Shown: in pieces, positions 5,570 through 61,674 of the stretch
Position numbering within the stretch: position 1 is the stretch's first letter
Layout of the letters: each line of letters begins with the position of its first letter
From: an uncultured Gammaproteobacteria bacterium
GTDB taxonomy: Bacteria > Pseudomonadota > Gammaproteobacteria > Magnimaribacterales > D2472
Assembly: GCA_964523375.1 (NCBI GenBank)
Contig: CAZFYG010000005.1
Coordinates: 9,372-73,371 of the forward strand
Direction of reading: 5' to 3'
Length of the DNA stretch: 64,000 bases
Notes under the pieces: model-generated
The model's input: only the letters and a program-made list of their open reading frames with translations
The model's database searches: none
What the model was told of the DNA's origin: nothing
Made by a program: the position numbers and the translations under genes

Positions 5570-6544
5570 ATGATTAAATACATTGGAAATACACCGCTAA
5601 TAAAACTAGAACATCTTTCTAATGAGACAGGCTGTAATATTTTTGGCAAAGCTGAGTTTATGAATCCAGGCGGTTCAGTTAAAGATAGAGCAGCTAAATA
5701 TATTTTAGAGGACGCAATAAAAAAAGGCCTTATAAGAAAAGGTGGGACTATTGTTGAGGGTACAGCTGGTAATACGGGTATTGGGTTGGCACTTGTAGGA
5801 AATGCCCTTGGCCTCAAAACAGTTATAGTTATTCCAGATACTCAATCTGAAGAAAAGAAAGCAACCATAAGAGCTTGCGGAGCAGAGCTAATAGAAGTTC
5901 CAGCTGTGCCATATAAAGATGAAAATAATTATGTGAAATATTCAAAAAAAGTTGCAGAATCTTACGAAAACCCTAATGGCGTTCTATGGGCCAATCAATT
6001 TGATAATGAGGCGAATAAGATAGGCCATTACAATGAAACTGGGCCAGAAATATATAATCAGCTTGATGGAAAAATAAATGGCTTCATATGCTCTGTTGGA
6101 ACGGGTGGAACTCTTTCTGGAATAGCTCAATATCTTAAAGATAAAAATAAGGATATTAAAATCGGCCTTGCTGATCCTTATGGTGCGGCTATTTACTCTT
6201 TCTTCCAAGATGGGGAATTAAAATCAGAAGGCTCTTCGGTTACAGAAGGTATTGGTCAAGGAAGAATTACAAAAAATATTGAAGGATTGAAGGTTGATAT
6301 CCCTTTAAGAATAAGTGATACAGATGCTCTAAGCGCTATGTTTCAGATGGTTGAAACTGAAGGCTTATATCTTGGAGGTAGTGCCGGTATCAATGTTGCC
6401 GGAGCAGTTGAAATGTCTAAACATATGGAAGCTGGAAGTAATATTGTTACTATATTGTGTGATTCGGGTTCCAGGTATTTAAGCAAACTTTATAATAGAA
6501 ATTTTTTAATTAATAACGATCTTCCTTGTCCCGATTGGGTTTAA
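5570..6544 (+). CDS. cysK: Cysteine synthase (O-acetylserine sulfhydrylase, PLP-dependent)
   Basis: GNTPLIKL, NPGGSVKDRAA (PLP lysine) and GTGGT motifs. ATG directly abuts the cysE stop. Confidence 0.85.
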   Translation: MIKYIGNTPLIKLEHLSNETGCNIFGKAEFMNPGGSVKDRAAKYILEDAIKKGLIRKGGTIVEGTAGNTGIGLALVGNALGLKTVIVIPDTQSEEKKATIRACGAELIEVPAVPYKDENNYVKYSKKVAESYENPNGVLWANQFDNEANKIGHYNETGPEIYNQLDGKINGFICSVGTGGTLSGIAQYLKDKNKDIKIGLADPYGAAIYSFFQDGELKSEGSSVTEGIGQGRITKNIEGLKVDIPLRISDTDALSAMFQMVETEGLYLGGSAGINVAGAVEMSKHMEAGSNIVTILCDSGSRYLSKLYNRNFLINNDLPCPDWV

Positions 6545-7789
6545 TTAAGCGTTAGCTAACTCAATTCCAAATAATCGCTTGTAAAGAGCTATTACTGCAA
6601 TACCAAATGCACTAATACCAAACTGAGCAACTAGAAGCTTTGATGATAGTACTTCATAATCAATGATCTCAAAACTTGTTATTCCAACAGCACCTATGCA
6701 TGAAAGTGTAAATAGCGCAATATAGGCATTATGGCTTTGTAGCAGCATGCTTGTGAGGGTAGTTAGGGATATTATGAACACCCCAATAATAGCAATTTCT
6801 GTTTTTGTATATTCAGATATAAAAAATAATACACTCCCTGATACAGCAATTGTAAAAATTAACTGAAAGAAACTAAATACTTGTACATCTGTTGTAACTA
6901 CTGGGTTGAATTTGGCATGAAAGTCTTTTGCGTCTTTTTCTTCTATACAGTCCTCTGGCCTCCAGTATGTCTTAGAAAACCAAACCTTAACTTTGTCACT
7001 CCATTTTTTGGTTTTAATTGAGTCATTGAGCATTGTTGAAAAAACTTGAAAGTTAGCCCAAATAGGATTCCAGCTTTTAAGAGCAGAAACTGTTCCATAT
7101 ACCGGTTTTACATCTGGTAGCTCGGCAGTATACGTACCAAACATCCTATCCCATATTATGAAAACTCCACCATAATTTGCATCAATATACTCTTTATTTT
7201 TGGCATGATGTATGCCGTGATTCATTGGGGTTATAAATATCTTTTCTAAGAAACCAAGGTGACCTATATGTTTTGTATGAACCCAGAACTGATATACCAA
7301 ATTTATACCAGCTACTGTTACAAATACTTCTCCTGGTATCCCAATAAGAACCATAGGTAAATAGAAAACCCATTTCCATAACCAGCCAGTACTAGTCTGC
7401 CTCAACGCAGTGGACAAATTAAAATCCTCACCATGATGATGAACACTATGTGTAGCCCATAAAAATTTAATTTCATGATGCATTCTATGCATCCAATAGT
7501 AAGAAAGATCATACATAAGGAATGCTAGAATCCAAGTGACTGGATTTAAATTAGAAAGCATATTTAGATTGAGATTAGAGCTTATGTAAATAAATACAGC
7601 GCTTTGAAAACCAAGATTTAACATGGTTGGATACCTGCTTATCATGCCTATGGATATGCTAGTAAAAGTATCATTTAGTCTGTATGTATTTTTACCAACA
7701 TATTTTCCGTAAATATATTCTATTAGAATCAATAAGAAAAAAACAGGAATTGCAAAGGTTATGACTAATGATTTATCTGTAATTACCAT
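6545..7789 (-). CDS. Fatty-acid hydroxylase/sterol desaturase superfamily membrane protein, alkylglycerol-monooxygenase-like architecture
   Basis: His boxes are HRMHHE, HSVHHHGE and HGIHHAKN. A long C-terminal multi-TM extension follows. Confidence 0.7.
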   Translation of the reverse strand: MVITDKSLVITFAIPVFFLLILIEYIYGKYVGKNTYRLNDTFTSISIGMISRYPTMLNLGFQSAVFIYISSNLNLNMLSNLNPVTWILAFLMYDLSYYWMHRMHHEIKFLWATHSVHHHGEDFNLSTALRQTSTGWLWKWVFYLPMVLIGIPGEVFVTVAGINLVYQFWVHTKHIGHLGFLEKIFITPMNHGIHHAKNKEYIDANYGGVFIIWDRMFGTYTAELPDVKPVYGTVSALKSWNPIWANFQVFSTMLNDSIKTKKWSDKVKVWFSKTYWRPEDCIEEKDAKDFHAKFNPVVTTDVQVFSFFQLIFTIAVSGSVLFFISEYTKTEIAIIGVFIISLTTLTSMLLQSHNAYIALFTLSCIGAVGITSFEIIDYEVLSSKLLVAQFGISAFGIAVIALYKRLFGIELANA

Positions 7790-7818: not shown

Positions 7819-8640
7819 TCAACTTTCCTTGTTTAAGAAAAACATCACTCCAAGAGCGTTACCAAACCCAGATTGACTATCAAAATTACCTTTTATATTT
7901 GCAAGTGCCAATCTATCAGTTATTCCACTCCTGACTACTTCCAGGTTACCAACTCGCCCTATAAAAAATACTTCACTTACGCCCATAAGAAGAGCGTTCA
8001 AATATGAAACAGTTCCTATTATTTCTCCAACCATATTTGATAGGGAGGCAGCGATATCACTATCAGAGTGATCATCACCATATCTAGCTTTTTCAAAGTT
8101 TGATGCTGTAACTTCAGGGTGCAAGGAGCCAATATCGTTTACAACTTCTCCGATTAGTGAATCAAGATTTTTTCTATTTCCAGCTAATGATAATTTTTCA
8201 AGAATACCTGAGGAATCTTCATTCAGTAATTTCTTAGATAGCCCCTGAAGGGTTCCTCCTCCTACTGAGATGCCTCCAAGGTGAGTTGTAACTCCATTAT
8301 CGTTATAAATACATGCGGTCCCTGTTCCCGCACTTACAGCTATAAAGGGCAGACCATCTTTTATTTTAAAAATAGACTTTGCACCCATTGCAATAGCATC
8401 TACCTCATTAACTTTTAATATTTTTATATTTAGATATTTATCAGACAGATCGCTAGATTTACCCCCTGTCACTCCAATCAATGAGAATTTATCAGCAGAA
8501 AGATCTATATAAGAAAAAATTTTCTCTAGGAATCGCTCATCAATTTTTTTACTTGTCGGGTGTGAAAAAAATTTATACTCTTTTCCGTCATTAACAATAA
8601 TGTCAGTATTTGATATTCCAAAATCTATTGCTAGAAGCAT
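7819..8640 (-). CDS. Type II (CoaW/Fumble-like) pantothenate kinase family protein
   Basis: Motifs are AIDFGISNT, VSAGTGTA, GGISVGGGTLQGL, TASNFEK and a C-terminal GFGNALG. They are collinear with S. aureus CoaW as recalled (VGTGTS, GGIGTGGGMIQGL, TAANFG, GAFSGAIGA). Confidence 0.65.
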   Translation of the reverse strand: MLLAIDFGISNTDIIVNDGKEYKFFSHPTSKKIDERFLEKIFSYIDLSADKFSLIGVTGGKSSDLSDKYLNIKILKVNEVDAIAMGAKSIFKIKDGLPFIAVSAGTGTACIYNDNGVTTHLGGISVGGGTLQGLSKKLLNEDSSGILEKLSLAGNRKNLDSLIGEVVNDIGSLHPEVTASNFEKARYGDDHSDSDIAASLSNMVGEIIGTVSYLNALLMGVSEVFFIGRVGNLEVVRSGITDRLALANIKGNFDSQSGFGNALGVMFFLNKES

Positions 8641-11021
8641 TATCTATGAGAAGTTATTTGCTTATTTCTCTCCATTAAATCCTTCATTAAGTTTTTTGGA
8701 TTAGATCGATATGGTTTTGGTTTAAGTCTTGAAGGTACCATTCTCTGAGGGTAATAATTGTTTTCTATATTTGTATCCGCTAGCTCCCAGTATGGATCAA
8801 GAACCACTGAGCTTATTGGTTTGAGTGATCTTTTGAGCCATCTTGCATTTTTAGGGTTTTTTCTCCAAATTTCAGCAGGTATTTTTAGCTCTTCATTTGA
8901 ACCATCTGCATAATTAATCTTTAAAGGCAGGGGCATAACCAACCCACCAATATTTTCAAATTCTAAAATATAATAAAGTTCATTCTTTGCAATAGCTTCT
9001 GTGAGAGCTTTTTTCATCCACTCAGGGTCACTATTGTTTCTGTCATATAAATCATCAAGAATATCTTCATAGTCTCCCATTTCTCTCTCAGATGGGGTGA
9101 ATTTATCGTATTGATCATAGATGTCTAATAGCTCAGGCCTAACAGTAACTCTTTCAATAATACCTTCATCAATATTTCTAATATCAGATATCATTTTTGG
9201 TTCATTTTTAAAGTCCTGCCTATCTTTCTTAAGATTTTCTTCTGGATTTAGAGTATCCAATGTTGCTTCATAAATATTATTTATAGAGATATCTACGTGG
9301 TCCGTAGAAAAAAACCAACCATTCCAAAACCAATCCAAGTCTACACCTGACGCTTCTTCCATTGTTCTAAAAAAGTCATATGGAGTAGGGCGCTTAAATC
9401 TCCATCTTAAGCAATATTCTTTAAAAGCCTGATCAAATAACTCTCTTCCTAGAATAGTTTCCCGAAGAATTACTAAAGCAGTAGCAGGTTTTGCATATGC
9501 ATTGTTTCCAAATTGAAGAAGTGATTCTGAATTAGTCATAATTGGAACTTGATTCTCACTCTTCATATAGTCAACGATCCACCTAGCCTCACCCCGTCTT
9601 GAATTATATTCAACATCCCATTCTTGCTCTGCAATATATTGCATGAAAGTATTAAGACCCTCGTCCATCCATGTCCACTGTCGCTCATCTGAGTTAATGA
9701 TCATTGGAAAATAGTTATGCCCAACCTCGTGAATTACAACCCCAATAAGAAATTGTTTTTCACTTCTTGAATAAGTCCTTGTTCCATCATCCTCAAGATC
9801 AGTCCTTGGTCCATTGAAAGTAATCATGGGGTATTCCATTCCCCCAACAGGGCCATTAACGCTTTGAGATGTTGGGTATGGGTATTCAAAAGAGAATTTA
9901 GAATAAACCTCCATCGTATGCATTACTGCTTCCGTAGAATATTTTGACCATAATGGCTCACCTTCAAATGGATAAAATGACATCGCCATAACTAACGGAT
10001 TCTTTTCAGACTCTTGTTTGTAACCAGCCGCATCCCATATAAATTTTCTTGATGATGCCCATGCAAAATCTCTTACATTTTCTGCCTTGAATACCCATGT
10101 TTTTTTACTCAAGGACCTTTCTTTTTCATTTTCAAAAGCTTCTTCAGGGGTGACAATAAATATTGGCTTTTCTGAATTCTCAGCTTCTCTTAACCTTTTA
10201 ATTTGTGATTTAGTAAGAACATCTTTCTCATTTTGCAATACACCTGTAGAAGAGACAATATGGTCTGATGGTGTCGTTATAGAAACCTCAAAATCTCCAA
10301 ACTCAAGAGTAAACTCACCATTGCCTATAAATTCTTTGTTATGCCAGCCCTCATAATCAGAAAATGCAGCAACTCTTGGGTACCACTGAGCTACAAGAAA
10401 AATATCATTACCGTCTTCAAATGTCTCATAACCATTTCTAGCTCTTACAGCATTCTCTTCAACAAGTTTATATTCCCAATTTACAGATAATTCGATTGAT
10501 TTATTTTCCTCCAAAGGAGTATCAAGATTAACTCTTACCAATGTTCCAACTAAATTTACTTTTGCTTTTTTACCTGCAATTGATATTGATAAATTTTTGT
10601 ACCCGCCATCAAACTTATCCATAAAATTATTTCTTCTAAGCTCGCTGAAAGAAATTCTGCTCGTGCTTGATTGAGTTATAGTTTGATTCTTTACAGAATC
10701 AGATTTAAAAATATTTTGATCAAGCTGAAGCCAAATATATTTTAAATCAAGCGGCGAATTATTATGATAGGTAATAATTTCAGAGCCCTTAATCGATCTT
10801 TCATCTTCGTCTAAAGAAACTGAAATCTTATAATCTGCTTTTTGCTGCCAGTACTCTTTTCCAGGCTCTCCAGTTGCAGGTCTATATTGATTTGGGTCTG
10901 GATATCTTTCTTCCAATTGACGAAACTTATCGTCAAAGGCAATTTTTGATTGATGTGTTGTATGAGCATAAAGCAGGTTAGTTGAAACTAGCAGTAGCAG
11001 TAATATATTATTTGTTTTCAT
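8640..11021 (-). CDS. Secreted M1-family zinc aminopeptidase
   Basis: Signal peptide (LLLLLVSTNLLYA), GGMEYP exopeptidase motif, HEVGHNYF...WMDEGLNTF zinc site. The stop overlaps the downstream ATG by 1 nt. Confidence 0.88.
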   Translation of the reverse strand: MKTNNILLLLLVSTNLLYAHTTHQSKIAFDDKFRQLEERYPDPNQYRPATGEPGKEYWQQKADYKISVSLDEDERSIKGSEIITYHNNSPLDLKYIWLQLDQNIFKSDSVKNQTITQSSTSRISFSELRRNNFMDKFDGGYKNLSISIAGKKAKVNLVGTLVRVNLDTPLEENKSIELSVNWEYKLVEENAVRARNGYETFEDGNDIFLVAQWYPRVAAFSDYEGWHNKEFIGNGEFTLEFGDFEVSITTPSDHIVSSTGVLQNEKDVLTKSQIKRLREAENSEKPIFIVTPEEAFENEKERSLSKKTWVFKAENVRDFAWASSRKFIWDAAGYKQESEKNPLVMAMSFYPFEGEPLWSKYSTEAVMHTMEVYSKFSFEYPYPTSQSVNGPVGGMEYPMITFNGPRTDLEDDGTRTYSRSEKQFLIGVVIHEVGHNYFPMIINSDERQWTWMDEGLNTFMQYIAEQEWDVEYNSRRGEARWIVDYMKSENQVPIMTNSESLLQFGNNAYAKPATALVILRETILGRELFDQAFKEYCLRWRFKRPTPYDFFRTMEEASGVDLDWFWNGWFFSTDHVDISINNIYEATLDTLNPEENLKKDRQDFKNEPKMISDIRNIDEGIIERVTVRPELLDIYDQYDKFTPSEREMGDYEDILDDLYDRNNSDPEWMKKALTEAIAKNELYYILEFENIGGLVMPLPLKINYADGSNEELKIPAEIWRKNPKNARWLKRSLKPISSVVLDPYWELADTNIENNYYPQRMVPSRLKPKPYRSNPKNLMKDLMERNKQITSHR

Positions 11022-12007: not shown

Positions 12008-13051
12008 TTACATGCTTTTAATCCATTTATTTATAAGAGCTACACCTTCGTCATGATTAAGAAATCTACCAGACTCAGGCATCATTATACCCGGATCTCG
12101 TGACTGCATTCTAAAAGGCATAATTGATTCTTCGGGCGCGCCTGGTTTAATTGAATATTTAAAATTATTGCTTGCTCTACCTGCTGCAACTGGCTTTTTA
12201 TAAACCCCTATATGCTCACTTCTATCTTCAGCAAAGTTAAGATAAAGACCTGTAGTATCTGCAGAGCCTCCAGGTATATGACAATGACCACAATTGATGT
12301 CCAAATATGCTCTAGCCCTTGAATCAAGATCAATAGATGTATTAGACCAATCAGGCATGGTGCTATAGTCTATTTGAGAATCTATCCAACCTTCATTTGC
12401 CCATCTATTAAGCTGATTCATGCTTATATCTTGATAATCATAATCATGATTGAGATTTCTAGCCTTAGGGCCTATAGGCTTAATTTCTTTTCCAGATTGA
12501 TGACATTCTTTACATTGATTGATGTTGGGCACTCTGTAGCGGACTTCTCTTATATCTCCTTTGTCATTTACAAATGAAGTATTTATAGTCTTTCCTGCGA
12601 TATTTAAGAATGCATCGCTTTGCTCTTCATTCCATACATAGCTAATATTTCTCCAAGCATTACCTTTTTTAATTAACAAACGAGTTTCAAGTAGCTGCTC
12701 TTCTAATTCTGATTCACTAGAATTGTTTAGGTATGCAAATGTTTTAATCAGGGCAGATCCATCTGGAAAATTAAAAACATGGTTCTCTTTATACTCAGCC
12801 TTTCCACCTGCAGGAATGTAAATAAATCTTAATTTATCTGTGTAATCTGTAAATAACGGGTTTACAAGATCATATGGCAAAACACCATCTTGCGGTGTCT
12901 GCAACTTCATATTTGAGAAAAAACCAAAATCAGAAAGTTTCTTTGGCATTTTGCTAGCTAAAACCACAGAATCATTTACTGTTGCATAGACTAGACCTGG
13001 AATAGTTAAAAAGTATAGAAAGAGAAAAAATAAGCTTTTATTATTCTTCAC
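12008..13051 (-). CDS. Secreted dihaem c-type cytochrome (HNE_0200/SO_2930-like family, function unknown)
   Basis: Signal peptide plus two CxxCH haem motifs (CKECH, CGHCH). It overlaps the upstream beta-helix gene by 11 nt. Confidence 0.75.
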   Translation of the reverse strand: MKNNKSLFFLFLYFLTIPGLVYATVNDSVVLASKMPKKLSDFGFFSNMKLQTPQDGVLPYDLVNPLFTDYTDKLRFIYIPAGGKAEYKENHVFNFPDGSALIKTFAYLNNSSESELEEQLLETRLLIKKGNAWRNISYVWNEEQSDAFLNIAGKTINTSFVNDKGDIREVRYRVPNINQCKECHQSGKEIKPIGPKARNLNHDYDYQDISMNQLNRWANEGWIDSQIDYSTMPDWSNTSIDLDSRARAYLDINCGHCHIPGGSADTTGLYLNFAEDRSEHIGVYKKPVAAGRASNNFKYSIKPGAPEESIMPFRMQSRDPGIMMPESGRFLNHDEGVALINKWIKSM

Positions 13052-51676: not shown

Positions 51677-52164
51677 TGAGCAACTTTCCAAACCTTAAAA
51701 AACCAACACATATTATTGCAACACTAGGCGGAATTGGTAATGCTAAATATGCACCAGGAACATGGGGTTCTTTGGCTGCCTTATTATTATTTATCTTCAT
51801 TTCTCATCAAAGCATCAATATTGAAATATTAATTATAGGTATTACATTTTATGCAATTTATATCTCTGGAATAGTTTCAGAAGATCTTGTTGAAAAAGAT
51901 CATAAAGCCATTGTTATTGATGAGCTTGCAGGCATGTGGATCGCAGCGTACCCAGCAATCTACTATAGCTCTCAAAATGAAAGGGTTGCATTTGTTGTTT
52001 TAGCTTTTATTTTATTCAGAATATTTGATATTACTAAACCATATCCAATTTCATATATTGATAAGAATATCAAAGGCGGACTTGGTATTGTGCTTGATGA
52101 TGTTGTTGCTGGGTTTATAGCTGCTGCTATGAGTATAGGTTTAATGAATCTAATATTTGGCTAG
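51676..52164 (+). CDS. pgpA: Phosphatidylglycerophosphatase A
   Basis: PGTWGS, IDE and KP motifs. TAATG overlap with thiL, the canonical thiL-pgpA pairing. Confidence 0.88.
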   Translation: MSNFPNLKKPTHIIATLGGIGNAKYAPGTWGSLAALLLFIFISHQSINIEILIIGITFYAIYISGIVSEDLVEKDHKAIVIDELAGMWIAAYPAIYYSSQNERVAFVVLAFILFRIFDITKPYPISYIDKNIKGGLGIVLDDVVAGFIAAAMSIGLMNLIFG

Positions 52165-53986
52165 CATTAATTCCAGCATCTTCAATCATCTCCTCTCTTG
52201 AAGCATGTTCTATAAAAGTATCTGGTATTCCAAATAATTTTGATTTTATTTCTATATTTTTATGAGAACAAAATTCCTGAACTGCACTTCCTGCACCGCC
52301 CATGATCGATCCATCTTCTAAGGAAATAAACATATCAGCATTCGCTAGATGCTTTAGAAGCATCCCTTCATCAAGAGGCTTTACAAATCTCATATCTATT
52401 AGAGTAAGGCCTAATTTTTCAGCAACTATTATTGCCTCAGATAGTAGAGCTCCAAAATTAAGAAAAATAATATCACTCCTTCCTTCTTTAATGAGCTTTG
52501 CCTTCCCAATTTCTATTGTTGTGAGTAAATTATCTCTTTTTGCATTTGGTCCTGACCCTCTGGGGTATCTTATAACCGCAGGCCCATTAAAGTTATAACC
52601 TGTAGAAAGCATCTTTTGTGTTTCCGCTTCATCAGATGGAGCCATAATAATAATATTAGGAATACATCTTAAGAATGCTATATCAAAATTCCCAGAATGC
52701 GTGGGACCATCCTCACCAACTAAACCAGATCTATCTAATGCGAAAGTAACATCAAGGTTTTGAACTGCTACATCATGAATAACTTGATCATAAGCTCTTT
52801 GTATAAAAGTTGAATATATTGCCACTACTGGTTTTTTATTTTTCCTTGCTAACCCTGCTGCAAAAGTTACAGAATGCTGTTCTGCAATTGCAACATCAAA
52901 ATATCTTTCAGGAAATTTTTTGCTGAACTCGACTAGTCCTGAGCCCTCTCTCATTGCCGGAGTTATCGCAACAAGCTTTTCATCATTCTCAGCTTGATTG
53001 ACAACCCACTCTCCAAAAACATCTTGATATTTTATACTGTCAGATGAACTACTTTTAATGCTATTAATTTTTCCTATAGCATGAAACTCAATTCTATCAG
53101 CCTCTGCAGCATCAAGGCCCGCACCTTTTTTTGTAATTATGTGTAAAAACTGTGGACCTTCAAAGTCTTTTAAATTACCAATTACTTCTAACATTTCATT
53201 AATATTATGCCCATCAATTGGCCCAATATAATTAAAACCAAGTTCTTCAAATATTGAACCTGGAGCAACCATAGCTTTCATTTGTGTCTCAACCTTTCTA
53301 GCCAAATGGTAAGCTTGCGGGAGCGGCTTCAAGAAGCTTGCACCTCCTTTTTTTATGCCTTTGTATACTTTTGATGCCCATATTCTTGAAAAGTAATTAG
53401 ATAATCCGCCAATATTTTCAGATATAGACATATCATTATCATTAAGTATTACTAGCATGTTTGGTTTAAGGTGACCTGCGTGACTAAGGGCTTCAAAAGC
53501 CATTCCAGCGGTCATTGCTCCATCGCCAATTACAGCAACAGTTCTTTCATTATTTTTAGCTGCCATTGCCATACCAAGAGCAGCACTAATGGAGGTACTA
53601 GAATGTCCTACTCCAAAAGAGTCATATTCGCTTTCTGTAATGTTGGGAAATGGAGCCAAGCCACCCTTGTGTCTAATAGTTTGGATTTCCTTTTTTCTGC
53701 CAGTCAATATTTTATGAGGGTAGGCTTGGTGCCCAACATCCCAGATCAAATTATCAGATGGGGTGTTAAAAATATAATGAAGCACCACTGTTAACTCCAC
53801 AACACCAAGTCCACCCCCAAGATGTCCACCACTTTGACCAACTGAATATAAAAGGTACTCCCTCAACTCATCAGCCAATAACTCTAATTCTTGAGATGAA
53901 AATGATCTAAAATCGCTTGGAGTATTAATATTGCATAAAAGTTTAGATTCTGGCTTTTCATTAGGTATCTTATTAAAAATCTTCAC
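52127..53986 (-). CDS. dxs: 1-deoxy-D-xylulose-5-phosphate synthase
   Basis: Motifs are GGHLGGGLGVVEL, DVGHQAYPHKILTGR and GDGAMTAGMAFEA. GTG start. Confidence 0.96.
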   Translation of the reverse strand: MKIFNKIPNEKPESKLLCNINTPSDFRSFSSQELELLADELREYLLYSVGQSGGHLGGGLGVVELTVVLHYIFNTPSDNLIWDVGHQAYPHKILTGRKKEIQTIRHKGGLAPFPNITESEYDSFGVGHSSTSISAALGMAMAAKNNERTVAVIGDGAMTAGMAFEALSHAGHLKPNMLVILNDNDMSISENIGGLSNYFSRIWASKVYKGIKKGGASFLKPLPQAYHLARKVETQMKAMVAPGSIFEELGFNYIGPIDGHNINEMLEVIGNLKDFEGPQFLHIITKKGAGLDAAEADRIEFHAIGKINSIKSSSSDSIKYQDVFGEWVVNQAENDEKLVAITPAMREGSGLVEFSKKFPERYFDVAIAEQHSVTFAAGLARKNKKPVVAIYSTFIQRAYDQVIHDVAVQNLDVTFALDRSGLVGEDGPTHSGNFDIAFLRCIPNIIIMAPSDEAETQKMLSTGYNFNGPAVIRYPRGSGPNAKRDNLLTTIEIGKAKLIKEGRSDIIFLNFGALLSEAIIVAEKLGLTLIDMRFVKPLDEGMLLKHLANADMFISLEDGSIMGGAGSAVQEFCSHKNIEIKSKLFGIPDTFIEHASREEMIEDAGINASQILDSLNLYS

Positions 53987-53988
53987 TT

Positions 53989-54873
53989 TTAACTTTCTCT
54001 ATTAATTATAAAATTGGCAAGGTTTTCTAGTTTATCAGTGTGCTCGTTATTGTCATAAGAAACACTTTTCAATAATAATAAAGCATCTTCTGTAAGTGCC
54101 TCATATCTTTCAATTGCATTTTCCAAGCCCACAATCTTCACATATGTAGATTTATCATTTCTTAAATCTGATAGTTTATTTTTGCCTAGTTTTTCACTGC
54201 TACCTATTATGTCTAACACATCGTCCTTGATCTGAAATGCTAAACCTATTTTCTGACTGAATAATTCCAATTTTTTTTGATCATCAAGATTAATATTTGA
54301 ACCAATTTGCCCCATTAAGATTGAGCACTCAATTAGCCTTCCAGTTTTTAAATGGTGTATTTGCTCAAGATCTAGCTGAGTGATATGTTTTTTATTTTCA
54401 TTTTCAATGTCTAGATGCTGCCCATAAACCATTCCATTTTTGCCACATGCACTAGACAGCAACTTAATGGCTTTAATTTTTTGCCCATCATTCAATTTTT
54501 CATCTTCAGCAATAACCTGAAAGGCAAGGGCTTGAAGCGCGTCACCAGCTAAGACAGCATTAGCTTCCCCAAATACAACATGATTAGATGGGCTATTCCT
54601 TCTAATATCATCATCATCCATACAGGGAAGATCATCATGTATCAACGAGTAACTATGCATCATTTCAATTGCACATGCCATATTTACAAGGCTTGATTTA
54701 TCGATATTGGCATTTGCTTCTCCTGATGCAATAACCAATCCTGCCCTAACCATTTTACTGGGAAGCATAGAGGTGTACGCCATAGATTTTTCTATTAGGT
54801 TGGATTCACCAATAATATCTTTTATTCTTGATTTAACTTCAGTCTGAACGGATGAAAGGAAGACTTGCAACAT
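53989..54873 (-). CDS. ispA: Farnesyl diphosphate synthase
   Basis: First Asp-rich motif is HDDLPCMDDDDIRRN and the second is KDDVLD. Confidence 0.92.
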   Translation of the reverse strand: MLQVFLSSVQTEVKSRIKDIIGESNLIEKSMAYTSMLPSKMVRAGLVIASGEANANIDKSSLVNMACAIEMMHSYSLIHDDLPCMDDDDIRRNSPSNHVVFGEANAVLAGDALQALAFQVIAEDEKLNDGQKIKAIKLLSSACGKNGMVYGQHLDIENENKKHITQLDLEQIHHLKTGRLIECSILMGQIGSNINLDDQKKLELFSQKIGLAFQIKDDVLDIIGSSEKLGKNKLSDLRNDKSTYVKIVGLENAIERYEALTEDALLLLKSVSYDNNEHTDKLENLANFIINRES

Positions 54874-54881
54874 TTGTTTTT

Positions 54882-55100
54882 CTAAACTTCTTCTGTAGCT
54901 GTCCCATCGTCAAGTAGTTTGCTTACTTTTAACTCGGCATCTTTAAGTTGTTTTTGACACTTTTTTACAAGTTCTATTCCCTGCTCAAATGATTTGACTG
55001 AATCTTCTAGATTGATGCTGTCATCCTCTAACTTTAATACTATTTTTTCAAGCTGAGATAGGGCTAATTCAAAATTTATGTTTTCATTATCTTTAGTCAT
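54882..55100 (-). CDS. xseB: Exodeoxyribonuclease VII small subunit
   Basis: 72 aa helical protein with FELALSQLEKIV. It sits in the canonical xseB-ispA-dxs order. Confidence 0.88.
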   Translation of the reverse strand: MTKDNENINFELALSQLEKIVLKLEDDSINLEDSVKSFEQGIELVKKCQKQLKDAELKVSKLLDDGTATEEV

Positions 55101-55116
55101 AGCTTATTGTAATTGA

Positions 55117-58100
55117 TTAATCTGATGCTTTTATATATTTCTTTAGATCATTTCTTATGCCATATGGCAAAGCGAGAACAGCAGGAGTAAGTATTAAAGT
55201 TATAAAAGTACTAAACCCTAATCCAAAAACAATAGACACAGCTAGGTTTGACCACCAATCAACTATCCTGCTTCCTATTAAAATTTCTCTTCCTATCAAA
55301 TCAACACTAACACCCATTGCTAAAGGCAATAAACCAAATATTGTTGTTAAAGAAGTTAAAAGAATTGGTCTAAGTCTTTGTTTGCATGCGCTAACAATAA
55401 GGTTTGATTTTTTGAGATTTGGAGACTCCTCTTTCATCTTATTAAAAGTATCAATTAGGACAATATTATTGTTCACAACAATGCCCGCTAATGTAACTAT
55501 AGATAAACCAGTCATTGTTGTACTAAATGGACTATTTGTAATCAATAAACCCAGCATAACACCAACAATAGATATCGTTACTGAGGTCAATATAATTAAG
55601 GATTGATAAAAGCTATTGAATTGAGTTAAAAGCATTATAAGCATTATAAATACTGCAGCTATTCCTGCTCCTGCCATAAAGTTATTAACTTCATCAGTTT
55701 CTTCCTGCATTCCCTCAAAAACAATTTCAACACCAGAATCAAGAGGACTTGTGTTAACCCATTGTTGTATTTCAATAATTTTTTCAGCTACTTTAGACTC
55801 ATCCTCTGTTCCAGCTCTTATTCTGTGGTGATATCGCCCATTTTTTCTTCTAACTGTTTGTCTATTTTCTTTTGGTACTACAGTAATAAATGAGCTCACA
55901 GGAACCAAGCCCTGTTTGGTTGTAACATTAAGATCTTTTATGCCTGTTAGGGTTCTATCAGCCTCAGGAAATCTTGCCCTTATCTCAACTTCATCTTTAG
56001 AGTCATCAGGCCTATACTCACCAACTTTAAAGCCATTGGTAAGCATTTGCACTAAAGCACCAACATCACTGATGTTTACACCCAGTTGAGCTGCTTTTTG
56101 TTTATCAACTTCAACACTCCACTCAACAGATGGATAGGCTTTTGATGATGAGATGTTGATTAAGCCCGGAACATTTTCAGTAAGATATTTTTCTATAACA
56201 TTGGCAGCATTATTAACTTCAGATTCAGTTTTTGCATAAACAGCAATCTCAATAGGTGAGTCAAAAGATGGTCCACCCAAAACGGGCTCTGCCTCTACTA
56301 TTATGCCAGCTATATCTTTTGTTGAATTCGTAACTAGTTTCATAACCTCAAGTCCAGAGATAGATCTTTCATAAGGTGGTGCAACCTCAATAAAGCCACT
56401 TCCAATTTTATCAGCACCTCTATCCCACCAATTAGAACCAGCTCTAAGATATACACTGCTCAACTCATCAATTTGTAAAAACCTTTCCTCAACACTTTCA
56501 ATTATTTCTTTTGATTCCAATGCAGAAAAATTACCTCTTGCTCTAATAGTTATCTCTGCCTGAACAGGGTCAACAATAGCAAAGTAAACAGTTCCTTTGC
56601 CAAAATTTGTATATGTAAAAATTATTACAGCAAGAACTGTAAAAACCCATAGTATTGTTTCGATAGGATTTTTTACGAATTTATAGGCATAGTTTCCATA
56701 TTTTTCAGCTAAATTAGCAAAGAAAGATGTGTTATTTTGGCTAGAAATATGGAGTGCAGATTGTTTTTGTCCAAATAGAGATCCCAGAACTGGAATTACA
56801 ATTAGTGAATAAAAAAGAGATGCGATTAGTACCAAAAACACTGTAATTGGTAAAAGTTTCATAAACTCTCCAGTAAAACCTGGCCATAGCATTACTGGAA
56901 TAAATGCTGCCATGGTCGTTCCTGTTGAGGCAAGAATAGGGTAAAACATTCTTTTTGATGCAGACCTATATCCTTCGTAGCGCGACATGCCCTCCGATAT
57001 CTTTTTGTCTGCATATTCAGTGATTACAATTGCCCCATCAATGAGCATTCCCATTCCTAGGAGTAGACCCATCATTACAAGGAAACTTACTTCACCACCT
57101 GCAGCATATAACGCAAGGTATGTAAGAAGGAAGCAAAAAGGAATTGAAAGCCCAACTAACATAGATACTCTGGGTCCTAAACTTGCAATTATGAGAATCA
57201 TTATCAAAACAACAGCAGTGATAATATTGCCATTTAGCTCTTTCACCATTTCTCTTGAATAAACTGAATCATCATCAGTGATTACCAGGCGAAGGTTTGT
57301 TGGAAGAGTCTTTCTAAAATCAGATAGTAAATTATTGATTTTTTGAGAGGCATCAATAGCATTAGCACCTTCTCTAAGAACTATTTCCAGCGTGACCGCA
57401 TCCTCACCGTTAACTCTTGCATAAGATGAAAAGTCTTTAAACGTTCTTCTTATATCCGCAACATCCCCTAAGGTAACAATAGCGTCTTTAGTTACTTTTA
57501 TTGGTATTGAATATACGTCTTGGGCTGACTCAATAATGCTTGGAACTTCAATATTGAAACTCCCTCTTCCAGTATCTTGCGTGCCTCCAGGGATTATTAA
57601 ATTATTATTAGCTACAGAGTAATAAATGTCAGAAAGCGTTACACCGTATGACTCTAATTTTGATTTATTAAAAATTCCTTCCAAAACCTCGTCTGGAGCT
57701 CCTGCCATTTCTGCTTGGAGTATTTCTTCTAATGCCTCTATCTTGTCTTTCAAATCGCGAGCATAGAATACTTTTTGACGGATTGATCCTGATCCAACGA
57801 CGCTAATATTCATCACTGGAAAGCTAGACTCATTATATTCATTAACAACTGGATCTTCTGCCTCTCTTGGTAATTCAAACTTAGTCTCTTCAACCGCTTG
57901 CTTCACATCTACAAGAGCCTTCTCCATGTCATAGCCAACCTCAAATTCTGTAAAAATTCTGGAGTAGCTCAAAGAACTTGTTGATGAAACATTTTTAAGC
58001 CCCGGAACAGTTCTTAGCCTATTCTCAAGAGGTTTTGCTATTAATCTTGATGTGTCATTGGGTGATGCTCCATCTAGATAGACTGATATAGATAGAAAAG

Positions 58101-58230
58101 GTAACTGAACATTTGGTGATGCGGATATGGGAATAGCCTGCCTCGCAAAGGAGCCAGCAATTACTATTAAAAAAGCAATTGTTAATGTGGTTTTTGACTT
58201 TTGAAGAGCAAAATCTACTATTGATGTCAT
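55117..58230 (-). CDS. RND efflux transporter permease (AcrB/HAE family)
   Basis: 1037 aa with the 12-TM RND topology and two large periplasmic loops. Confidence 0.9.
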   Translation of the reverse strand: MTSIVDFALQKSKTTLTIAFLIVIAGSFARQAIPISASPNVQLPFLSISVYLDGASPNDTSRLIAKPLENRLRTVPGLKNVSSTSSLSYSRIFTEFEVGYDMEKALVDVKQAVEETKFELPREAEDPVVNEYNESSFPVMNISVVGSGSIRQKVFYARDLKDKIEALEEILQAEMAGAPDEVLEGIFNKSKLESYGVTLSDIYYSVANNNLIIPGGTQDTGRGSFNIEVPSIIESAQDVYSIPIKVTKDAIVTLGDVADIRRTFKDFSSYARVNGEDAVTLEIVLREGANAIDASQKINNLLSDFRKTLPTNLRLVITDDDSVYSREMVKELNGNIITAVVLIMILIIASLGPRVSMLVGLSIPFCFLLTYLALYAAGGEVSFLVMMGLLLGMGMLIDGAIVITEYADKKISEGMSRYEGYRSASKRMFYPILASTGTTMAAFIPVMLWPGFTGEFMKLLPITVFLVLIASLFYSLIVIPVLGSLFGQKQSALHISSQNNTSFFANLAEKYGNYAYKFVKNPIETILWVFTVLAVIIFTYTNFGKGTVYFAIVDPVQAEITIRARGNFSALESKEIIESVEERFLQIDELSSVYLRAGSNWWDRGADKIGSGFIEVAPPYERSISGLEVMKLVTNSTKDIAGIIVEAEPVLGGPSFDSPIEIAVYAKTESEVNNAANVIEKYLTENVPGLINISSSKAYPSVEWSVEVDKQKAAQLGVNISDVGALVQMLTNGFKVGEYRPDDSKDEVEIRARFPEADRTLTGIKDLNVTTKQGLVPVSSFITVVPKENRQTVRRKNGRYHHRIRAGTEDESKVAEKIIEIQQWVNTSPLDSGVEIVFEGMQEETDEVNNFMAGAGIAAVFIMLIMLLTQFNSFYQSLIILTSVTISIVGVMLGLLITNSPFSTTMTGLSIVTLAGIVVNNNIVLIDTFNKMKEESPNLKKSNLIVSACKQRLRPILLTSLTTIFGLLPLAMGVSVDLIGREILIGSRIVDWWSNLAVSIVFGLGFSTFITLILTPAVLALPYGIRNDLKKYIKASD

Positions 58231-59096
58231 ATTTTACTTACTAAAACTTGCTGCCCATCTTCCACAAACCCCTGGCCCTGAACAATTAAGTCAGCATTTT
58301 CTGGTATTCCCATTACCCATATACCCTCTTCAGAGTCTTCAAGAATTCTAACTTCTTTAAATTTAACTATATCGATATTCTCAATCACTTTAATACCAAG
58401 AAGCCCCTTATCATTCAACATAAGAATTGATGGAGAGATTCTATGAGCCATTATTTTCGAAGTCCTTATTATCATTTCTGAAGTAATACCATCTCGTATT
58501 TGACCATTTATATTATTAACTTCAGCTTCAACTTTAAATGTTCTTGTCTGACTTGATGCGCTCTTAGAAACAAAGCTTAAGCTACCATCAATTCTTTCAC
58601 CTGTAATTAAATTTAAATTAACAGTCTGACCTACTTTTACTTTATTGATATCCGACTCTGGCACCTCTGCAACAAATGTTATGGGATCTAGCTGAATTAT
58701 AGTTGCACATACCTGACCTCTCTCTAAGAAATTTCCTGGCTTAACAATCTTCTCAAGATAGCCTGAGAAGGGCGCTTTGACCTCTGTTCTATTGAGTTCA
58801 ACAATACCAAGGCTGCATAGAACAGAATCCCCTTCAACAAAATTACCTTGCCTTGCTCCAATGCTTACAACCTCTCCAGATGTTTTAGCTCTTACATCAA
58901 CTCTTGTTTCTGAAATCGTAGTCGATTTAAGTTTAATTAATGGTTGATAGGGAATAGCAACACTCTTCATTGTTGCTACAGTAAACAGCTCTTTTTTTAT
59001 AACCTCTTTTTCAACCACTTCTTCGAATCTTCCAGAAATTAAAGCAAGCGCAGCAATAATAAAAATTGCTAGTGATATTCTTATGTTTTTATTCAT
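58227..59096 (-). CDS. RND efflux periplasmic adaptor (membrane fusion protein)
   Basis: 289 aa with a signal anchor and lipoyl/beta-barrel-type segments. ATGA overlap with the RND pump gene. Confidence 0.8.
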   Translation of the reverse strand: MNKNIRISLAIFIIAALALISGRFEEVVEKEVIKKELFTVATMKSVAIPYQPLIKLKSTTISETRVDVRAKTSGEVVSIGARQGNFVEGDSVLCSLGIVELNRTEVKAPFSGYLEKIVKPGNFLERGQVCATIIQLDPITFVAEVPESDINKVKVGQTVNLNLITGERIDGSLSFVSKSASSQTRTFKVEAEVNNINGQIRDGITSEMIIRTSKIMAHRISPSILMLNDKGLLGIKVIENIDIVKFKEVRILEDSEEGIWVMGIPENADLIVQGQGFVEDGQQVLVSKI

Positions 59097-59099
59097 ACT

Positions 59100-59747
59100 T
59101 TATATATTGTGTTTTTTTCTTAGCTGTTCAAGTAATTTTTGATCTAAAGGCTTTAAATCAGACTTTTTAGATTCTTCAGACGGCAATACAAATTTTTCAC
59201 CCTTGATAGCAAGATCTTTCATCTTTATATATGTCCTTGAAAACGCACTAAATAATTCTTTAGAGTCCCTCTCATCTAAGAGGTTCCAACCTATTTTTTT
59301 TCCAGAGAAATAAACTACCGGATGTGACCAGTTATAAGATGCCCTAGGAGAAAATGATTTTCTTGCTTCTATATAAGCTTCTTCAACAGATGGAAACCCA
59401 TCTAAGCTCAAAATATCATTACATGCTCTGATAACATCAGTTAATGTAGGAAGATATGGCTGGTTATCAACAACAGTTTCTGCTGAACTTAATATTGTAG
59501 TAGCATCAAATTTTTTTAAGCTAGATGCCCATAGCTTTTTACCCTCATTCAGCCTTTGGTCTGTTCCAAAAACCTTATAGAATTGATAATGGTAAGCAAG
59601 CTCAAGTTTTAAGAATAAGGAATCTATTGCATCTACAAATTCATTCTTACTCAAAGTTGATCTCTTCTGCCCAGGATTTATCTTTTTTTCTTTCGTCGAA
59701 GCCCTGTTTGAAGGTTCCAGGTTCAGAATGGTTTTTACTTTTTTCAT
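59100..59747 (-). CDS. Lambda replication protein P-like protein (putative helicase-loader-like)
   Basis: Collinear resemblance to lambda P as recalled: W..S/F...TT; PYLPTLTDVIRAC vs PFLPSPGQFVAWC; GFPSVEEAYIEARK vs GLPNVSELVDMVYEY; YNWSHPVVYF vs YPWKSNAHYW. An alternative TTG start at 59654 would reduce the overlap with the upstream gene to 8 nt. Confidence 0.55.
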   Translation of the reverse strand: MKKVKTILNLEPSNRASTKEKKINPGQKRSTLSKNEFVDAIDSLFLKLELAYHYQFYKVFGTDQRLNEGKKLWASSLKKFDATTILSSAETVVDNQPYLPTLTDVIRACNDILSLDGFPSVEEAYIEARKSFSPRASYNWSHPVVYFSGKKIGWNLLDERDSKELFSAFSRTYIKMKDLAIKGEKFVLPSEESKKSDLKPLDQKLLEQLRKKHNI

Positions 59748-60438
59748 TTTGATTTTTATTACTTACAAGATGCCTTCTTTTAACGTGATCAATAAATTTT
59801 GAGTTCCAAGTATTGAAAGCACTGCCGTTATCAGTCCAGTATAGTATAAATTCGGCTAAATAAGGCGACGCATCTTCTTCAGTAATATTTGATAATGATA
59901 GTATTTGATATACATCATCACTTGGCACCCAGCTCTTGCTTATAGGAAAGGGCAATCCTTTATTTGAATTATTTTCTTTGGCCCATTCGCGTCTTATATA
60001 GTCAATAAATGTACTATTCCAATTATTTCTTTGCTGACCTCTTTCCATCCAATAAATCCTAAACTCTGGTATTTTTTTAGAAATAAAGCTTTCCTCTATC
60101 GAGCCCATCTCAAGAACATCCATAGCCTCACTAGAAGGAAGCCAGCCATTGCCCATATCCTGCTTTTCGAATGGTTTAGCTCGTGGAAGTCTAAGATTTG
60201 ACCTGCTATCTTCCTGTTGGTATTTTTTTATAAGATTGAACCTTAGCAACTCATCAAGACTTTTTTTAATATCCTCTTTTTTAATAAAGGTAAGCTCATT
60301 CGAAAGTCTTTCTATTAAAACATCTTTAGATCTAATTTTTTTAAATATATCCTGATTGCATTTATCGAGAATAATTGCACTTTCTATATTTAGAGTTTCT
60401 GCAACTTCTTTGGAAAATGAAATCTTATCATCTGCCAT
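59647..60438 (-). CDS. Protein with a lambda-O-like winged-helix N-terminus and two tandem DnaT-type domains
   Basis: The N-terminal LSNELTFIKKEDIKKSLDELLRFNLIKK resembles lambda O LSEITKLPVKRCNEAKLELVRMNIIKQ. Two repeats follow, W-x-P-S...EF-x-x-YW...G...N-x-WNS-x-FID, which match the E. coli DnaT C-terminal pattern (W.P...EL.SFIAYWQAEG...W). Confidence 0.55.
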   Translation of the reverse strand: MADDKISFSKEVAETLNIESAIILDKCNQDIFKKIRSKDVLIERLSNELTFIKKEDIKKSLDELLRFNLIKKYQQEDSRSNLRLPRAKPFEKQDMGNGWLPSSEAMDVLEMGSIEESFISKKIPEFRIYWMERGQQRNNWNSTFIDYIRREWAKENNSNKGLPFPISKSWVPSDDVYQILSLSNITEEDASPYLAEFILYWTDNGSAFNTWNSKFIDHVKRRHLVSNKNQNEKSKNHSEPGTFKQGFDERKKDKSWAEEINFE

Positions 60439-60443
60439 TTTAA

Positions 60444-61493
60444 TTATGAATCTCTTCGTTGCTGAACTGCTTTATCAAGAGTATTAAAACATACCGAAGT
60501 ATCTTCAAGGTTAATGCACGCATCAGTAATGCTTTGCCCATATTTTAAATTAGAAGATATTTTCTGATTACCTTCGTGTATGTGACTTTCTATCATAACG
60601 CCTTTAAGGTTGTGGTCTCCAAGGGTAATTTGCTTGCCTATATCCTCTATTACATTAATTTGTTGCTTAAACTTTTTTTGGCTGTTTCCATGACTAGCAT
60701 CCACCATGATAGATTCATTAACTTCAGCTTCTTTGAGAGCAGTAAGAGTTTCTTTGATTGAATGGTTGTCATAATTAGGCTCTTTCCCACCTCTTAATAT
60801 AATGTGGGCATCATTATTGCCAGCAGTTTTCAACATTGCTATCTCTGCTTCTTTTGTAGCACCGAGAAAAACATGAGAGTGATTTGCAGCTTGGATTCCA
60901 TCAATTGCTGCTTTTAAACTTCCGTTAGTGCCATTTTTTATGCCAATTGGACAAGAAAGGCCTGATGCTAGCTCTCTATGAATTTGGCTTTCTGCAGTTC
61001 GAGCACCTATTGCACCCCATGATATCAAGTCAGTTACATATTGAGGTGAGATAGGGTCAAGAAACTCTGTACCTACTGGCATATTCAGCTCCGCTATATC
61101 AATAAGCAATTTCCTAGCCTTTTCAATGCCCTTTGCAATTTTATAGCTACCATCTAAATCAGGATCGTTGATCAAACCTTTCCATCCGACAGTCGTCCTG
61201 GGCTTCTCAAAATAAACCCTCATAACTAGCAAAAGAGTATCTTTATATTTTAAGCTTTCTTCTTTAAGCCATTTTGCATACTCTAGGGCACTATCAGTAT
61301 CATGAATTGAACAAGGTCCTGTCACAACCAAAAGCCTATCATCTGCGTTATGGAGAATTTGGCTAATTTCATTTCTTGTTCCATAAACCAATCTTGAAAT
61401 TTCATCGTTAAGGGGGTATTTGTTAACTAATTCATAAGGGGCAGGAACCTTTTGTCTATCAATTATTCTTGTGTTGTCGGTGAGGTAATTCAT
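60444..61493 (-). CDS. Class I 3-deoxy-7-phosphoheptulonate (DAHP) synthase (AroF/G/H type)
   Basis: Motifs are GPCSIHD, KPRTTVGWKGLINDPDLDGS and IGARTAESQ. Confidence 0.93.
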   Translation of the reverse strand: MNYLTDNTRIIDRQKVPAPYELVNKYPLNDEISRLVYGTRNEISQILHNADDRLLVVTGPCSIHDTDSALEYAKWLKEESLKYKDTLLLVMRVYFEKPRTTVGWKGLINDPDLDGSYKIAKGIEKARKLLIDIAELNMPVGTEFLDPISPQYVTDLISWGAIGARTAESQIHRELASGLSCPIGIKNGTNGSLKAAIDGIQAANHSHVFLGATKEAEIAMLKTAGNNDAHIILRGGKEPNYDNHSIKETLTALKEAEVNESIMVDASHGNSQKKFKQQINVIEDIGKQITLGDHNLKGVMIESHIHEGNQKISSNLKYGQSITDACINLEDTSVCFNTLDKAVQQRRDS

Positions 61494-61674
61494 GGCTTAT
61501 CAATTTATTGTTTAATCCACCATATTAAATCAATGCTCAAAAATTAATATAAAAAGTAGTAAAAAATAAACTATTTTTTATTTATAAATATTTCCAATAT
61601 TTCTAGCCAAATTAATGCTTTTTTTTATAAATACTATATGTTGTATTAAATATGTCTAAACCTTACACTATGTA

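Follow-up and report, generated by a model that had tools for sequence, protein, structure and literature searches.

The window analysed here, a 64,000-nucleotide (nt) stretch of the genome of an uncultured gammaproteobacterium (assembly GCA_964523375.1, contig CAZFYG010000005.1), carries on its minus strand, at positions 59100-60438, two overlapping genes that we consider likely to be the SAR86-clade orthologues of dopC and dopE: a phage replication module that has been fixed in the chromosome and is inherited vertically. Brezellec and colleagues (Brezellec et al. 2017, Genome Biol Evol; PMC5509034) described dopE as a domesticated gene of the lambda P family, carried by the Cellvibrionales and by the dciA-less Oceanospirillales, which came to light because it and dciA or dnaC/I exclude each other in the published genomes. 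Its companion dopC, always adjacent to it, has a product that combines an O-like helix-turn-helix (HTH) N-terminus with a C-terminal DnaT domain. Alongside DciA and DnaC/DnaI, DopCE has been proposed as a third bacterial system for helicase loading. To this known family we add the SAR86 host (our literature search found no paper linking SAR86 with helicase loaders), a DopC with two DnaT repeats, a dual-coding dopC/dopE overlap with the associated mis-annotation of dopE, and a better candidate for the phage ancestor of DopC. An initial annotation, made from the letters of the window, had placed two adjoining, overlapping genes at this position and suggested that they might be the published dopC-dopE; the open reading frames (ORFs) are indeed there, and their domain content, their conserved resident context and the clustering of the downstream product with resident DopE proteins all agree with that suggestion. 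The features of the pair (lengths in amino acids, aa, from ORF translation; HMM, hidden Markov model) are as follows:

59647..60438 (-): dopC, 263 aa; helical domain of HTH type at the N-terminus, then a disordered linker, a pair of DnaT-type three-helix bundles and a C-terminal tail that is conserved
60175..60438 (-): DopC N-terminal domain, aa 1-88; helices at aa 10-66, motif SFSKEVAETLxIExAIIL; identified with hhalign
59956..60168 (-): DnaT-type repeat 1, aa 91-161; keeps the Y129-W130 pair and W140; Pfam and repeat HMM
59746..59946 (-): DnaT-type repeat 2, aa 165-231; keeps Y200-W201, F208, W211 and K214; Pfam and repeat HMM
59100..59747 (-): dopE, putative helicase loader of the lambda P family, 215 aa; Pfam, PHROG, profile and fold evidence
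59647..59747 (-): 101 nt over which the end of dopC and the beginning of dopE overlap out of frame; comparative evidence
59652..59654 (-): TTG from which gene callers start dopE, giving 184 aa and an overlap of 8 nt; many SAR86 relatives lack it

DopE belongs to the lambda P family. Its sequence scores 31.9 bits against Pfam Phage_lambda_P (PF06992; gathering score 26) over aa 40-185 and matches PHROG 109, 'P-like helicase loader' (7.7e-13). The blocks PYLPTLTDVIRAC, GFPSVEEAY and YNWSHPVVYF, quoted in the initial annotation when it called the downstream product collinear with lambda P, are present in the translation, and that call holds over the full length of the protein: a DopE family profile built from 30 diverse members aligns collinearly with residues 20-227 of the 233 of lambda P in the DnaB-lambda P complexes (8v9t and 9oa1; E 3e-4). 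Lambda P was reached only with this profile, since single-sequence searches of DopC and DopE against the PDB sequences gave nothing significant. The AlphaFold2 (AF2) model of DopE, with a mean predicted local distance difference test score (pLDDT) of 85, begins with a disordered N-terminal segment (aa 1-33) and continues with two helical domains, aa 34-95 and aa 102-181, after which a disordered linker leads to a C-terminal helix (aa 203-212); as judged by Foldseek, its sole significant fold matches in the PDB are the lambda P chains of 9oa1 (probability 1.0), followed by the N-domain of the SPP1 loader G39P (probability 0.97, with a non-significant E-value). Lambda P consists of four domains, I to IV, and grips DnaB with the 'lasso' segments that domains I and IV form (PMC12661323). 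DopE has the same domain order, is collinear with all four domains and adopts the same fold; it is unrelated to E. coli DnaC and is not an AAA+/IstB protein. From this homology we would expect DopE to open the DnaB ring and load it as lambda P does, with the loading step itself being what we infer.

A tree built by neighbour joining from 74 sequences of DopE and P-like proteins (213 columns, 200 bootstraps) shows SAR86 DopE as monophyletic in 200/200 bootstraps and chromosomal DopE as a whole (SAR86 plus Pseudomonadales-type) as separate from the viral P-like proteins in 194/200. Mean DopE identity is 29% between SAR86 and the Pseudomonadales-type proteins and 20% between SAR86 and the viral P-like proteins. 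With the published dopC-dopE, the window pair shares the two genes and their order (dopC directly upstream of dopE), the DopE clade, a DopC that consists of an initiator-type N-domain, DnaT domains and a D-x-S-W-A tail, a long overlap in the same relative frame, a non-phage chromosomal context and the lack of iterons and DnaA boxes. The two differ in their hosts, which are Cellvibrionales and dciA-less Oceanospirillales in the published set, with SAR86 lying outside that paper's coverage; in the length of DopC, which in SAR86 is ~115 aa shorter than in Pseudomonadales-type genomes (two DnaT repeats vs three, and an N-terminal region of ~90 vs ~130 aa); and in the overlap (101 nt vs 89 nt). The SAR86 host extends the range of dopC-dopE and does not exclude the pair from the family. 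The shared clade, the tandem DnaT repeats, the D-x-S-W-A tail and the long same-frame overlap argue for SAR86 and published dopCE having arisen in the same domestication event. An independent domestication in SAR86 was also considered, and was rejected in view of the shared clade, the tail motif and the same-frame overlap.

The genomes closest to the window DopE all belong to the SAR86 cluster, which the NCBI taxonomy places in Gammaproteobacteria incertae sedis. A scan of one genome per GTDB species yielded 580 DopE relatives, the best 40 of which are almost all labelled SAR86 cluster; the next relatives, at 33-40% identity, come from Pseudohongiella, Porticoccaceae (including HTCC2207), Halieaceae, Cellvibrionaceae and OM182. 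Public assemblies contain the exact DopC protein in 396 index blocks, from which we read 24 contigs and inspected the neighbours in six; the gene order is identical in all of these long contigs (6/6). The arrangement rluB-scpB-scpA / aroG-dopC-dopE-adaptor-RND-xseB-ispA (RND, resistance-nodulation-division) is common to ~40 SAR86 species representatives, as seen at the loci with enough flank, and it is kept in the deepest SAR86 branch, where DopE is 33% identical to that of the window. Both ORFs are intact in ~40 species-level SAR86 lineages (33-98% identity), and across SAR86 the identity of DopE to the window protein goes in step with the identity of DopC (rho 0.87) and with those of the housekeeping neighbours (rho 0.75-0.90). 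Because synteny is conserved and the divergence of DopE tracks that of its housekeeping neighbours, we conclude that dopC-dopE is a resident, vertically inherited pair and not a prophage. The aroG / RND-xseB-ispA-dxs context of the window-type DopC is found in none of the Pseudomonadales-type loci examined.

The same data bear on the possibility that the pair is an inert prophage remnant, that is, decaying lambdoid leftovers with no cellular function. Both proteins do belong to phage replication families and related phage modules are present in viral contigs, but no other phage genes lie nearby, both ORFs are intact with synteny conserved across ~40 SAR86 lineages, both frames of the overlap are constrained (see below), and the genome is streamlined, with intergenic gaps of 3-5 nt at this locus. 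We regard this explanation as highly improbable and close to refuted. The initial annotation had likewise held that the pair is not in a prophage, which is in keeping with our scan of 29 further window proteins (no integrase or other phage gene among them) and with the housekeeping nature of the flanks; the synteny check that it had proposed showed the gene order to be kept across the SAR86 representatives, with no sporadic distribution accompanied by phage flanks. SAR86 is among the most abundant and genome-streamlined bacteria of the surface ocean, and the pair is fixed, syntenic and under purifying selection there. The find takes DopCE beyond the two orders in which it was first described and strengthens the case for its indispensability.

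The overlap of the two genes encodes both the DopC tail (...KDKSWAEEINFE) and the N-terminal segment of DopE (MKKVKTILN...INPGQKR). The D-x-S-W-A motif of the DopC tail is conserved, and the G-Q motif of the DopE N-terminus reads INPGQ here and T-E-A-G-Q in relatives. An ATG that gives an overlap of 101 or 98 nt is present in all SAR86 loci, with a corresponding overlap of 89 nt in almost all Pseudomonadales-type loci; the dopE frame is open over the overlap in every locus with this ATG, with 2-6 stops in the third frame in SAR86, and in 8 relatives the upstream ATG is the only possible dopE start before the conserved core. Within the overlap, the third codon positions of dopC are the second codon positions of dopE, and they are more conserved than third positions elsewhere in dopC (0.65 vs 0.47 in SAR86; 0.59 vs 0.38 in the others), an excess that holds in every amino-acid conservation bin. 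This excess suggests that selection acts on both frames.

This has consequences for the annotation of dopE. Public gene calls of SAR86 dopE give a product of either 184 aa, from the TTG located 8 nt before the dopC stop, or 193 aa (loci L001-L006). Judging from the comparison of loci, the TTG at 59652-59654 is probably not the true dopE start, the ATG at 59745-59747 being better supported, and public dopE annotation would often be short by ~20-30 N-terminal residues, the predicted counterpart of domain I, or lasso, of lambda P. The removal of this segment matters for the cloning of dopE genes. The arrangement likely entails translational coupling as well as forced co-evolution of the DopC and DopE termini. 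The word 'overlap' is absent from the text of the 2017 paper (PMC5509034). A slippery-looking run of eight A residues lies inside the overlap at ~59682-59689 (AGAAAAAAAGAT, DopC residues R-K-K-D); a programmed frameshift here that would fuse DopC to DopE was considered and rejected, given that a -1 slip enters the stop-rich third frame and that the run is not conserved in GC-rich relatives.

Full-length homologues of DopC are present in all SAR86 loci. Pfam DnaT (PF17948) matches two stretches of the window protein (E 4.3e-38), and phrog_1032, 'replication initiation protein', matches it via the same region; the boundaries of the two repeats (aa 91-161 and 165-231) were set with a purpose-built repeat HMM. 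In the AF2 model (mean pLDDT 74), a disordered linker joins a helical N-domain (aa 10-66) to two bundles (aa 103-158 and 174-227), which are followed by a poorly ordered tail, and the best PDB matches of the model in Foldseek are the DnaT single-stranded DNA (ssDNA)-binding domains 6aeq and 4ou6 (probability 1.0), which bears out the initial assignment of two DnaT-type domains to the upstream product. The match of the DopC profile to DnaT among the PDB sequences is weak (E 0.57), so the DopC-DnaT relationship rests on the Pfam and fold matches. A trace of the two modules is visible in the DNA as a 26-nt direct repeat (59789-59814 / 60002-60027, 77% identical, 213 nt apart) that encodes W-N-S-x-F-I-D; it is the sole direct repeat of note that the repeat search gave.

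The repetition of the domain was initially singled out as notable, and it turns out not to be special to this locus. As determined with the repeat HMM and Pfam, every SAR86 DopC has two DnaT domains, and the Pseudomonadales-type DopC (~360-410 aa; sampled from Cellvibrio, Pseudohongiella, HTCC2207, OM182, Halieaceae and Pseudoteredinibacter) has three: repeated DnaT domains are a trait of the whole DopC family. SAR86 repeat 2 corresponds to the canonical repeat R3 in 38/38 SAR86 sequences, repeat 1 scores best against canonical R2 or R3, and canonical repeat 1 is the most divergent of the three. The text of the 2017 paper, figures aside, speaks of 'a domain' only (PMC5509034). With two DnaT modules and a short N-domain, the SAR86 protein is the smallest natural DopC that we found, and it offers a minimal unit for biochemistry.

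In E. coli DnaT, the Y127A/W128A double substitution abolishes ssDNA binding, with F135, K133, K143 and R146 also contributing, and each module binds two nucleotides, the modules packing as a cooperative filament (PMC4132743). The Tyr-Trp pairs, the Phe and the Lys of the DopC repeats align with Y127, W128, F135 and K143 of DnaT, and, on the strength of this alignment, it is plausible that the repeats bind ssDNA. By analogy, dnaT-dnaC of E. coli is laid out in the same manner, with a protein that carries a DnaT ssDNA-binding domain encoded next to a loader of phage origin, and the aromatic ssDNA residues are conserved between the two systems. DopC is nevertheless not a DnaT orthologue by the NCBIfam equivalog model PRK02854 (16.2 bits vs a cut-off of 201, with the C-terminal domain alone aligning): it does not have the PriB-binding/oligomerisation N-domain of DnaT, and it carries its DnaT modules in tandem on one chain, whereas E. 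coli DnaT is a reported trimer.

The N-terminal domain of DopC points to a different phage source than the one originally named. The initial annotation had seen a resemblance to the winged-helix region of lambda O there, for which support is weak: window DopC has no match to Phage_rep_O (PF04492) at E <= 1 (lambda O itself scores 123 bits and the O protein of Pseudomonas phage Ab31 69 bits), and the hhalign probability of DopC N-domains against the lambda O and Ab31 O N-domains is below 1%, with a phage-O profile of just these two sequences. The SAR86 N-domain does match that of Pseudomonadales-type DopC (hhalign probability 94%, E 1e-7), and the latter in turn matches the N-domain of the initiator of Stenotrophomonas phage StM171 (probability 98%, E 1e-13) and the 'O-like' protein of HannyBb (1e-16). 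The same domain is found in 'O-like' initiators at the O position of the lambdoid coliphages HannyBb and mEp460 and also in DnaD-like initiators of Staphylococcus phages. Compared with BFVD (Foldseek), the DopC model had no more than weak, non-significant matches to phage replication proteins. As judged by these comparisons, DopC is 'lambda-O-like' in position and presumed role, not in sequence family.

Lambda O-P and dopC-dopE share their gene order, with the gene for the initiator immediately preceding that for the loader. However, DopC has no detectable similarity to either the N-domain (Phage_rep_O) or the C-terminal P-binding domain of lambda O, dopC harbours no ori/iteron array, unlike the upstream gene in lambda, the context is chromosomal and not that of a prophage, and the O/P overlap of 4 nt in lambda and 1 nt in Ab31 compares with 101 nt for dopC/dopE in the window. 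StM171-type initiators (PHROG 1032) are closer in build. Like DopC, the StM171 'replication initiation protein' has a DopC-type N-domain followed by a Pfam DnaT domain, although it has one such domain and stands in a phage context, and the gene overlaps of these phage proteins are short or unverified (4 nt in L096); unlike dopC-dopE, StM171 and HannyBb have no P gene downstream. In four IMG/VR contigs (L096, L099, L112 and L115), an initiator with one weak DnaT-like domain is encoded directly upstream of a P-like gene. That phage initiators combine this N-domain with DnaT, some of them being placed before a P-like gene, suggests that the DopC architecture was inherited from phage and not built in the cell; it was probably taken over whole from a phage initiator, with tandem duplication expanding it later. 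Replacement of the C-terminus of lambda O by a cellular DnaT domain is the less likely alternative.

Several points weigh against the assignment of the window pair to a conserved helicase-loading module. The literature search found no experiment on DnaB loading by DopE, and later papers cite the function as 'suggested'. The single-sequence Pfam score of DopE is modestly over its threshold (31.9 vs 26), the tree was made by a simple distance method with 20 viral sequences only, the DopC N-domain has no significant structural match (Foldseek against PDB and BFVD), and the basic ssDNA-contact residues K133 and R146 of DnaT are not kept in the DopC repeats. Finally, some Pseudomonadales-type genomes have dopE without an adjacent dopC, and DopC may therefore not be obligatory for DopE.

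The lone dopE genes are found in six Pseudomonadales-type metagenome-assembled genomes (MAGs; L058, L067, L071, L074, L075 and L078), where dopE has glyA and an ettA-like ABC-F gene as its neighbours and is not preceded by dopC, at ~5850-6700 in most of these loci and at 4006-4698 in L067; dopC may be located elsewhere in these genomes, or this dopE may be a second copy. A few further loci have peculiarities of their own. In the SAR86 MAG P_MB137_1 (L010), dopC is split into two overlapping ORFs (5267-5674 / 5511-6101), probably by an assembly-error frameshift rather than as a pseudogene, because dopE and the neighbours are intact. Two MAGs labelled Klebsiella pneumoniae / Enterobacteriaceae (L055 and L071) carry a Pseudomonadales-type dopE, in L055 together with a three-repeat dopC, and are most likely mislabelled or contaminated bins. 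One IMG/VR 'viral' contig (L091, 4977-5549) carries a gene of the resident DopE clade that matches the family HMM at E 3e-69 and is not preceded by dopC; the contig may be a bacterial fragment misfiled as viral.

If the pair works as its homologues do, DopE would bind the C-terminal tier of the DnaB hexamer via its two helical domains and the lasso segments at its two termini, keep the ring open and pass it on to single-stranded DNA, and would presumably replace DciA in these genomes (the window covers 64 kb of one of them) and be essential there. DopC would act as the adaptor of DopE, with an initiator-type N-domain and two DnaT-type bundles that keep the Tyr-Trp pair needed by E. coli DnaT; these bundles would bind the ssDNA exposed at unwound oriC or at a stalled fork and recruit DopE-DnaB, and the C-terminal D-x-S-W-A tail may make the DopC-DopE contact. 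Both genes would be translated from one message, with the conserved overlap coupling their expression. We also propose, tentatively and as a possibility we would not lean on, a more specific reading in which the overlap is a built-in functional feature of the dopCE family as a whole. Some ~30 shared codons would specify both the D-x-S-W-A peptide at the DopC C-terminus and the DopE lasso, the counterpart of lambda P domain I, which grips DnaB at the ring breach, and would thereby lock in coupling and co-evolution; the tandem DnaT modules, three in most lineages and pared down to two in streamlined SAR86, would amount to a covalent DnaT oligomer that nucleates on ssDNA, allowing one polypeptide to take the place of a primosome adaptor and to direct a P-type loader at both oriC and stalled forks.

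Where on the chromosome the pair would act is the subject of a rival explanation, namely that DopC and DopE serve fork restart only, in the manner of a primosome, with oriC loading being left to another factor or to none. E. coli DnaT, the only cellular protein with this domain, acts in PriA-dependent restart and not at oriC (PMC4132743), and the 2017 authors raised the possibility for DopC (PMC5509034). The lack of origin-like elements near dopC is in line with it: there are no DnaA boxes within 59100-60438 (in the window as a whole, matches are fewer than chance expects) and the repeat search detected no iteron array in the dopC-dopE locus. On the other hand, E. coli DnaC alone serves both initiation and restart, which would make a dedicated restart-only loader unusual, DopE was found via its mutual exclusion with dciA and dnaC/I (PMC5509034), and the retention of two loader systems is not to be expected of a genome as streamlined as that of SAR86. 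We judge a restart-only module to be unlikely. The separate idea that dopC hides a replication origin was rejected, as the locus has neither DnaA boxes nor iterons.

It has also been speculated that a domesticated loader could hamper phage replication (PMC5509034), and the pair could accordingly be seen as a competitor, a P-like protein that occupies DnaB against phage loaders and is not an essential cellular loader. That lambda P out-competes DnaC for DnaB (cited in PMC5509034) speaks for such a role; however, defence genes are usually patchy and mobile, whereas this pair is fixed, is found in every SAR86 locus recovered and evolves with its housekeeping neighbours. On this argument from context, an anti-phage function is very unlikely, and a cellular loader with its adaptor remains our preferred reading of dopC-dopE.

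The pair is embedded in a same-strand array, the further features of which are as follows:

60444..61493 (-): aroG-type DAHP (3-deoxy-D-arabino-heptulosonate 7-phosphate) synthase gene, first gene of the array; TIGR00034, E 5e-150
58227-59096 (-): RND efflux adaptor gene, directly 3' of dopE; position kept in SAR86 loci
55117-58230 (-): RND permease gene, following the adaptor gene; position kept in SAR86 loci
52127..55100 (-): xseB, ispA and dxs, last part of the array
61631..61660 (-): promoter-like hexamers in the divergent aroG/scpA spacer, upstream of aroG; consensus match only

A gap of 5 nt separates aroG from dopC, and one of 3 nt separates dopE from the RND adaptor gene, so the tight packing between a DAHP synthase gene and an RND pump, followed by xseB-ispA-dxs on the same strand, is as initially described. 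In all SAR86 loci that include this flank, aroG precedes dopC; in the window, scpA, scpB and rluB lie beyond aroG in divergent orientation. The hexamers at 61631..61660 are a candidate promoter for the whole array, in a window where the matches of the promoter and terminator scans are at or below chance level. The terminator scan found no clean terminator between aroG and the RND genes; one weak terminator-like hairpin inside dopE (59317-59332) is within chance expectation. An Rfam scan of the window detected a tRNA-Ala only, with no RNA element associated with the dopC-dopE locus.

Elsewhere in the window, a 347-aa ORF at 12008-13051 (-) has no Pfam family at E <= 1e-5 and a 793-aa M1-peptidase-domain protein at 8640-11021 (-) has no NCBIfam match; neither stands out in any other respect. 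Beyond the neighbours of dopC-dopE, the 20 proteins of the window that were scanned are ordinary metabolic or envelope proteins, among them a TonB receptor, gltBD, mrcA, cobT, glyA, cysE/K-like genes and a formyltransferase encoded next to the sole tRNA.

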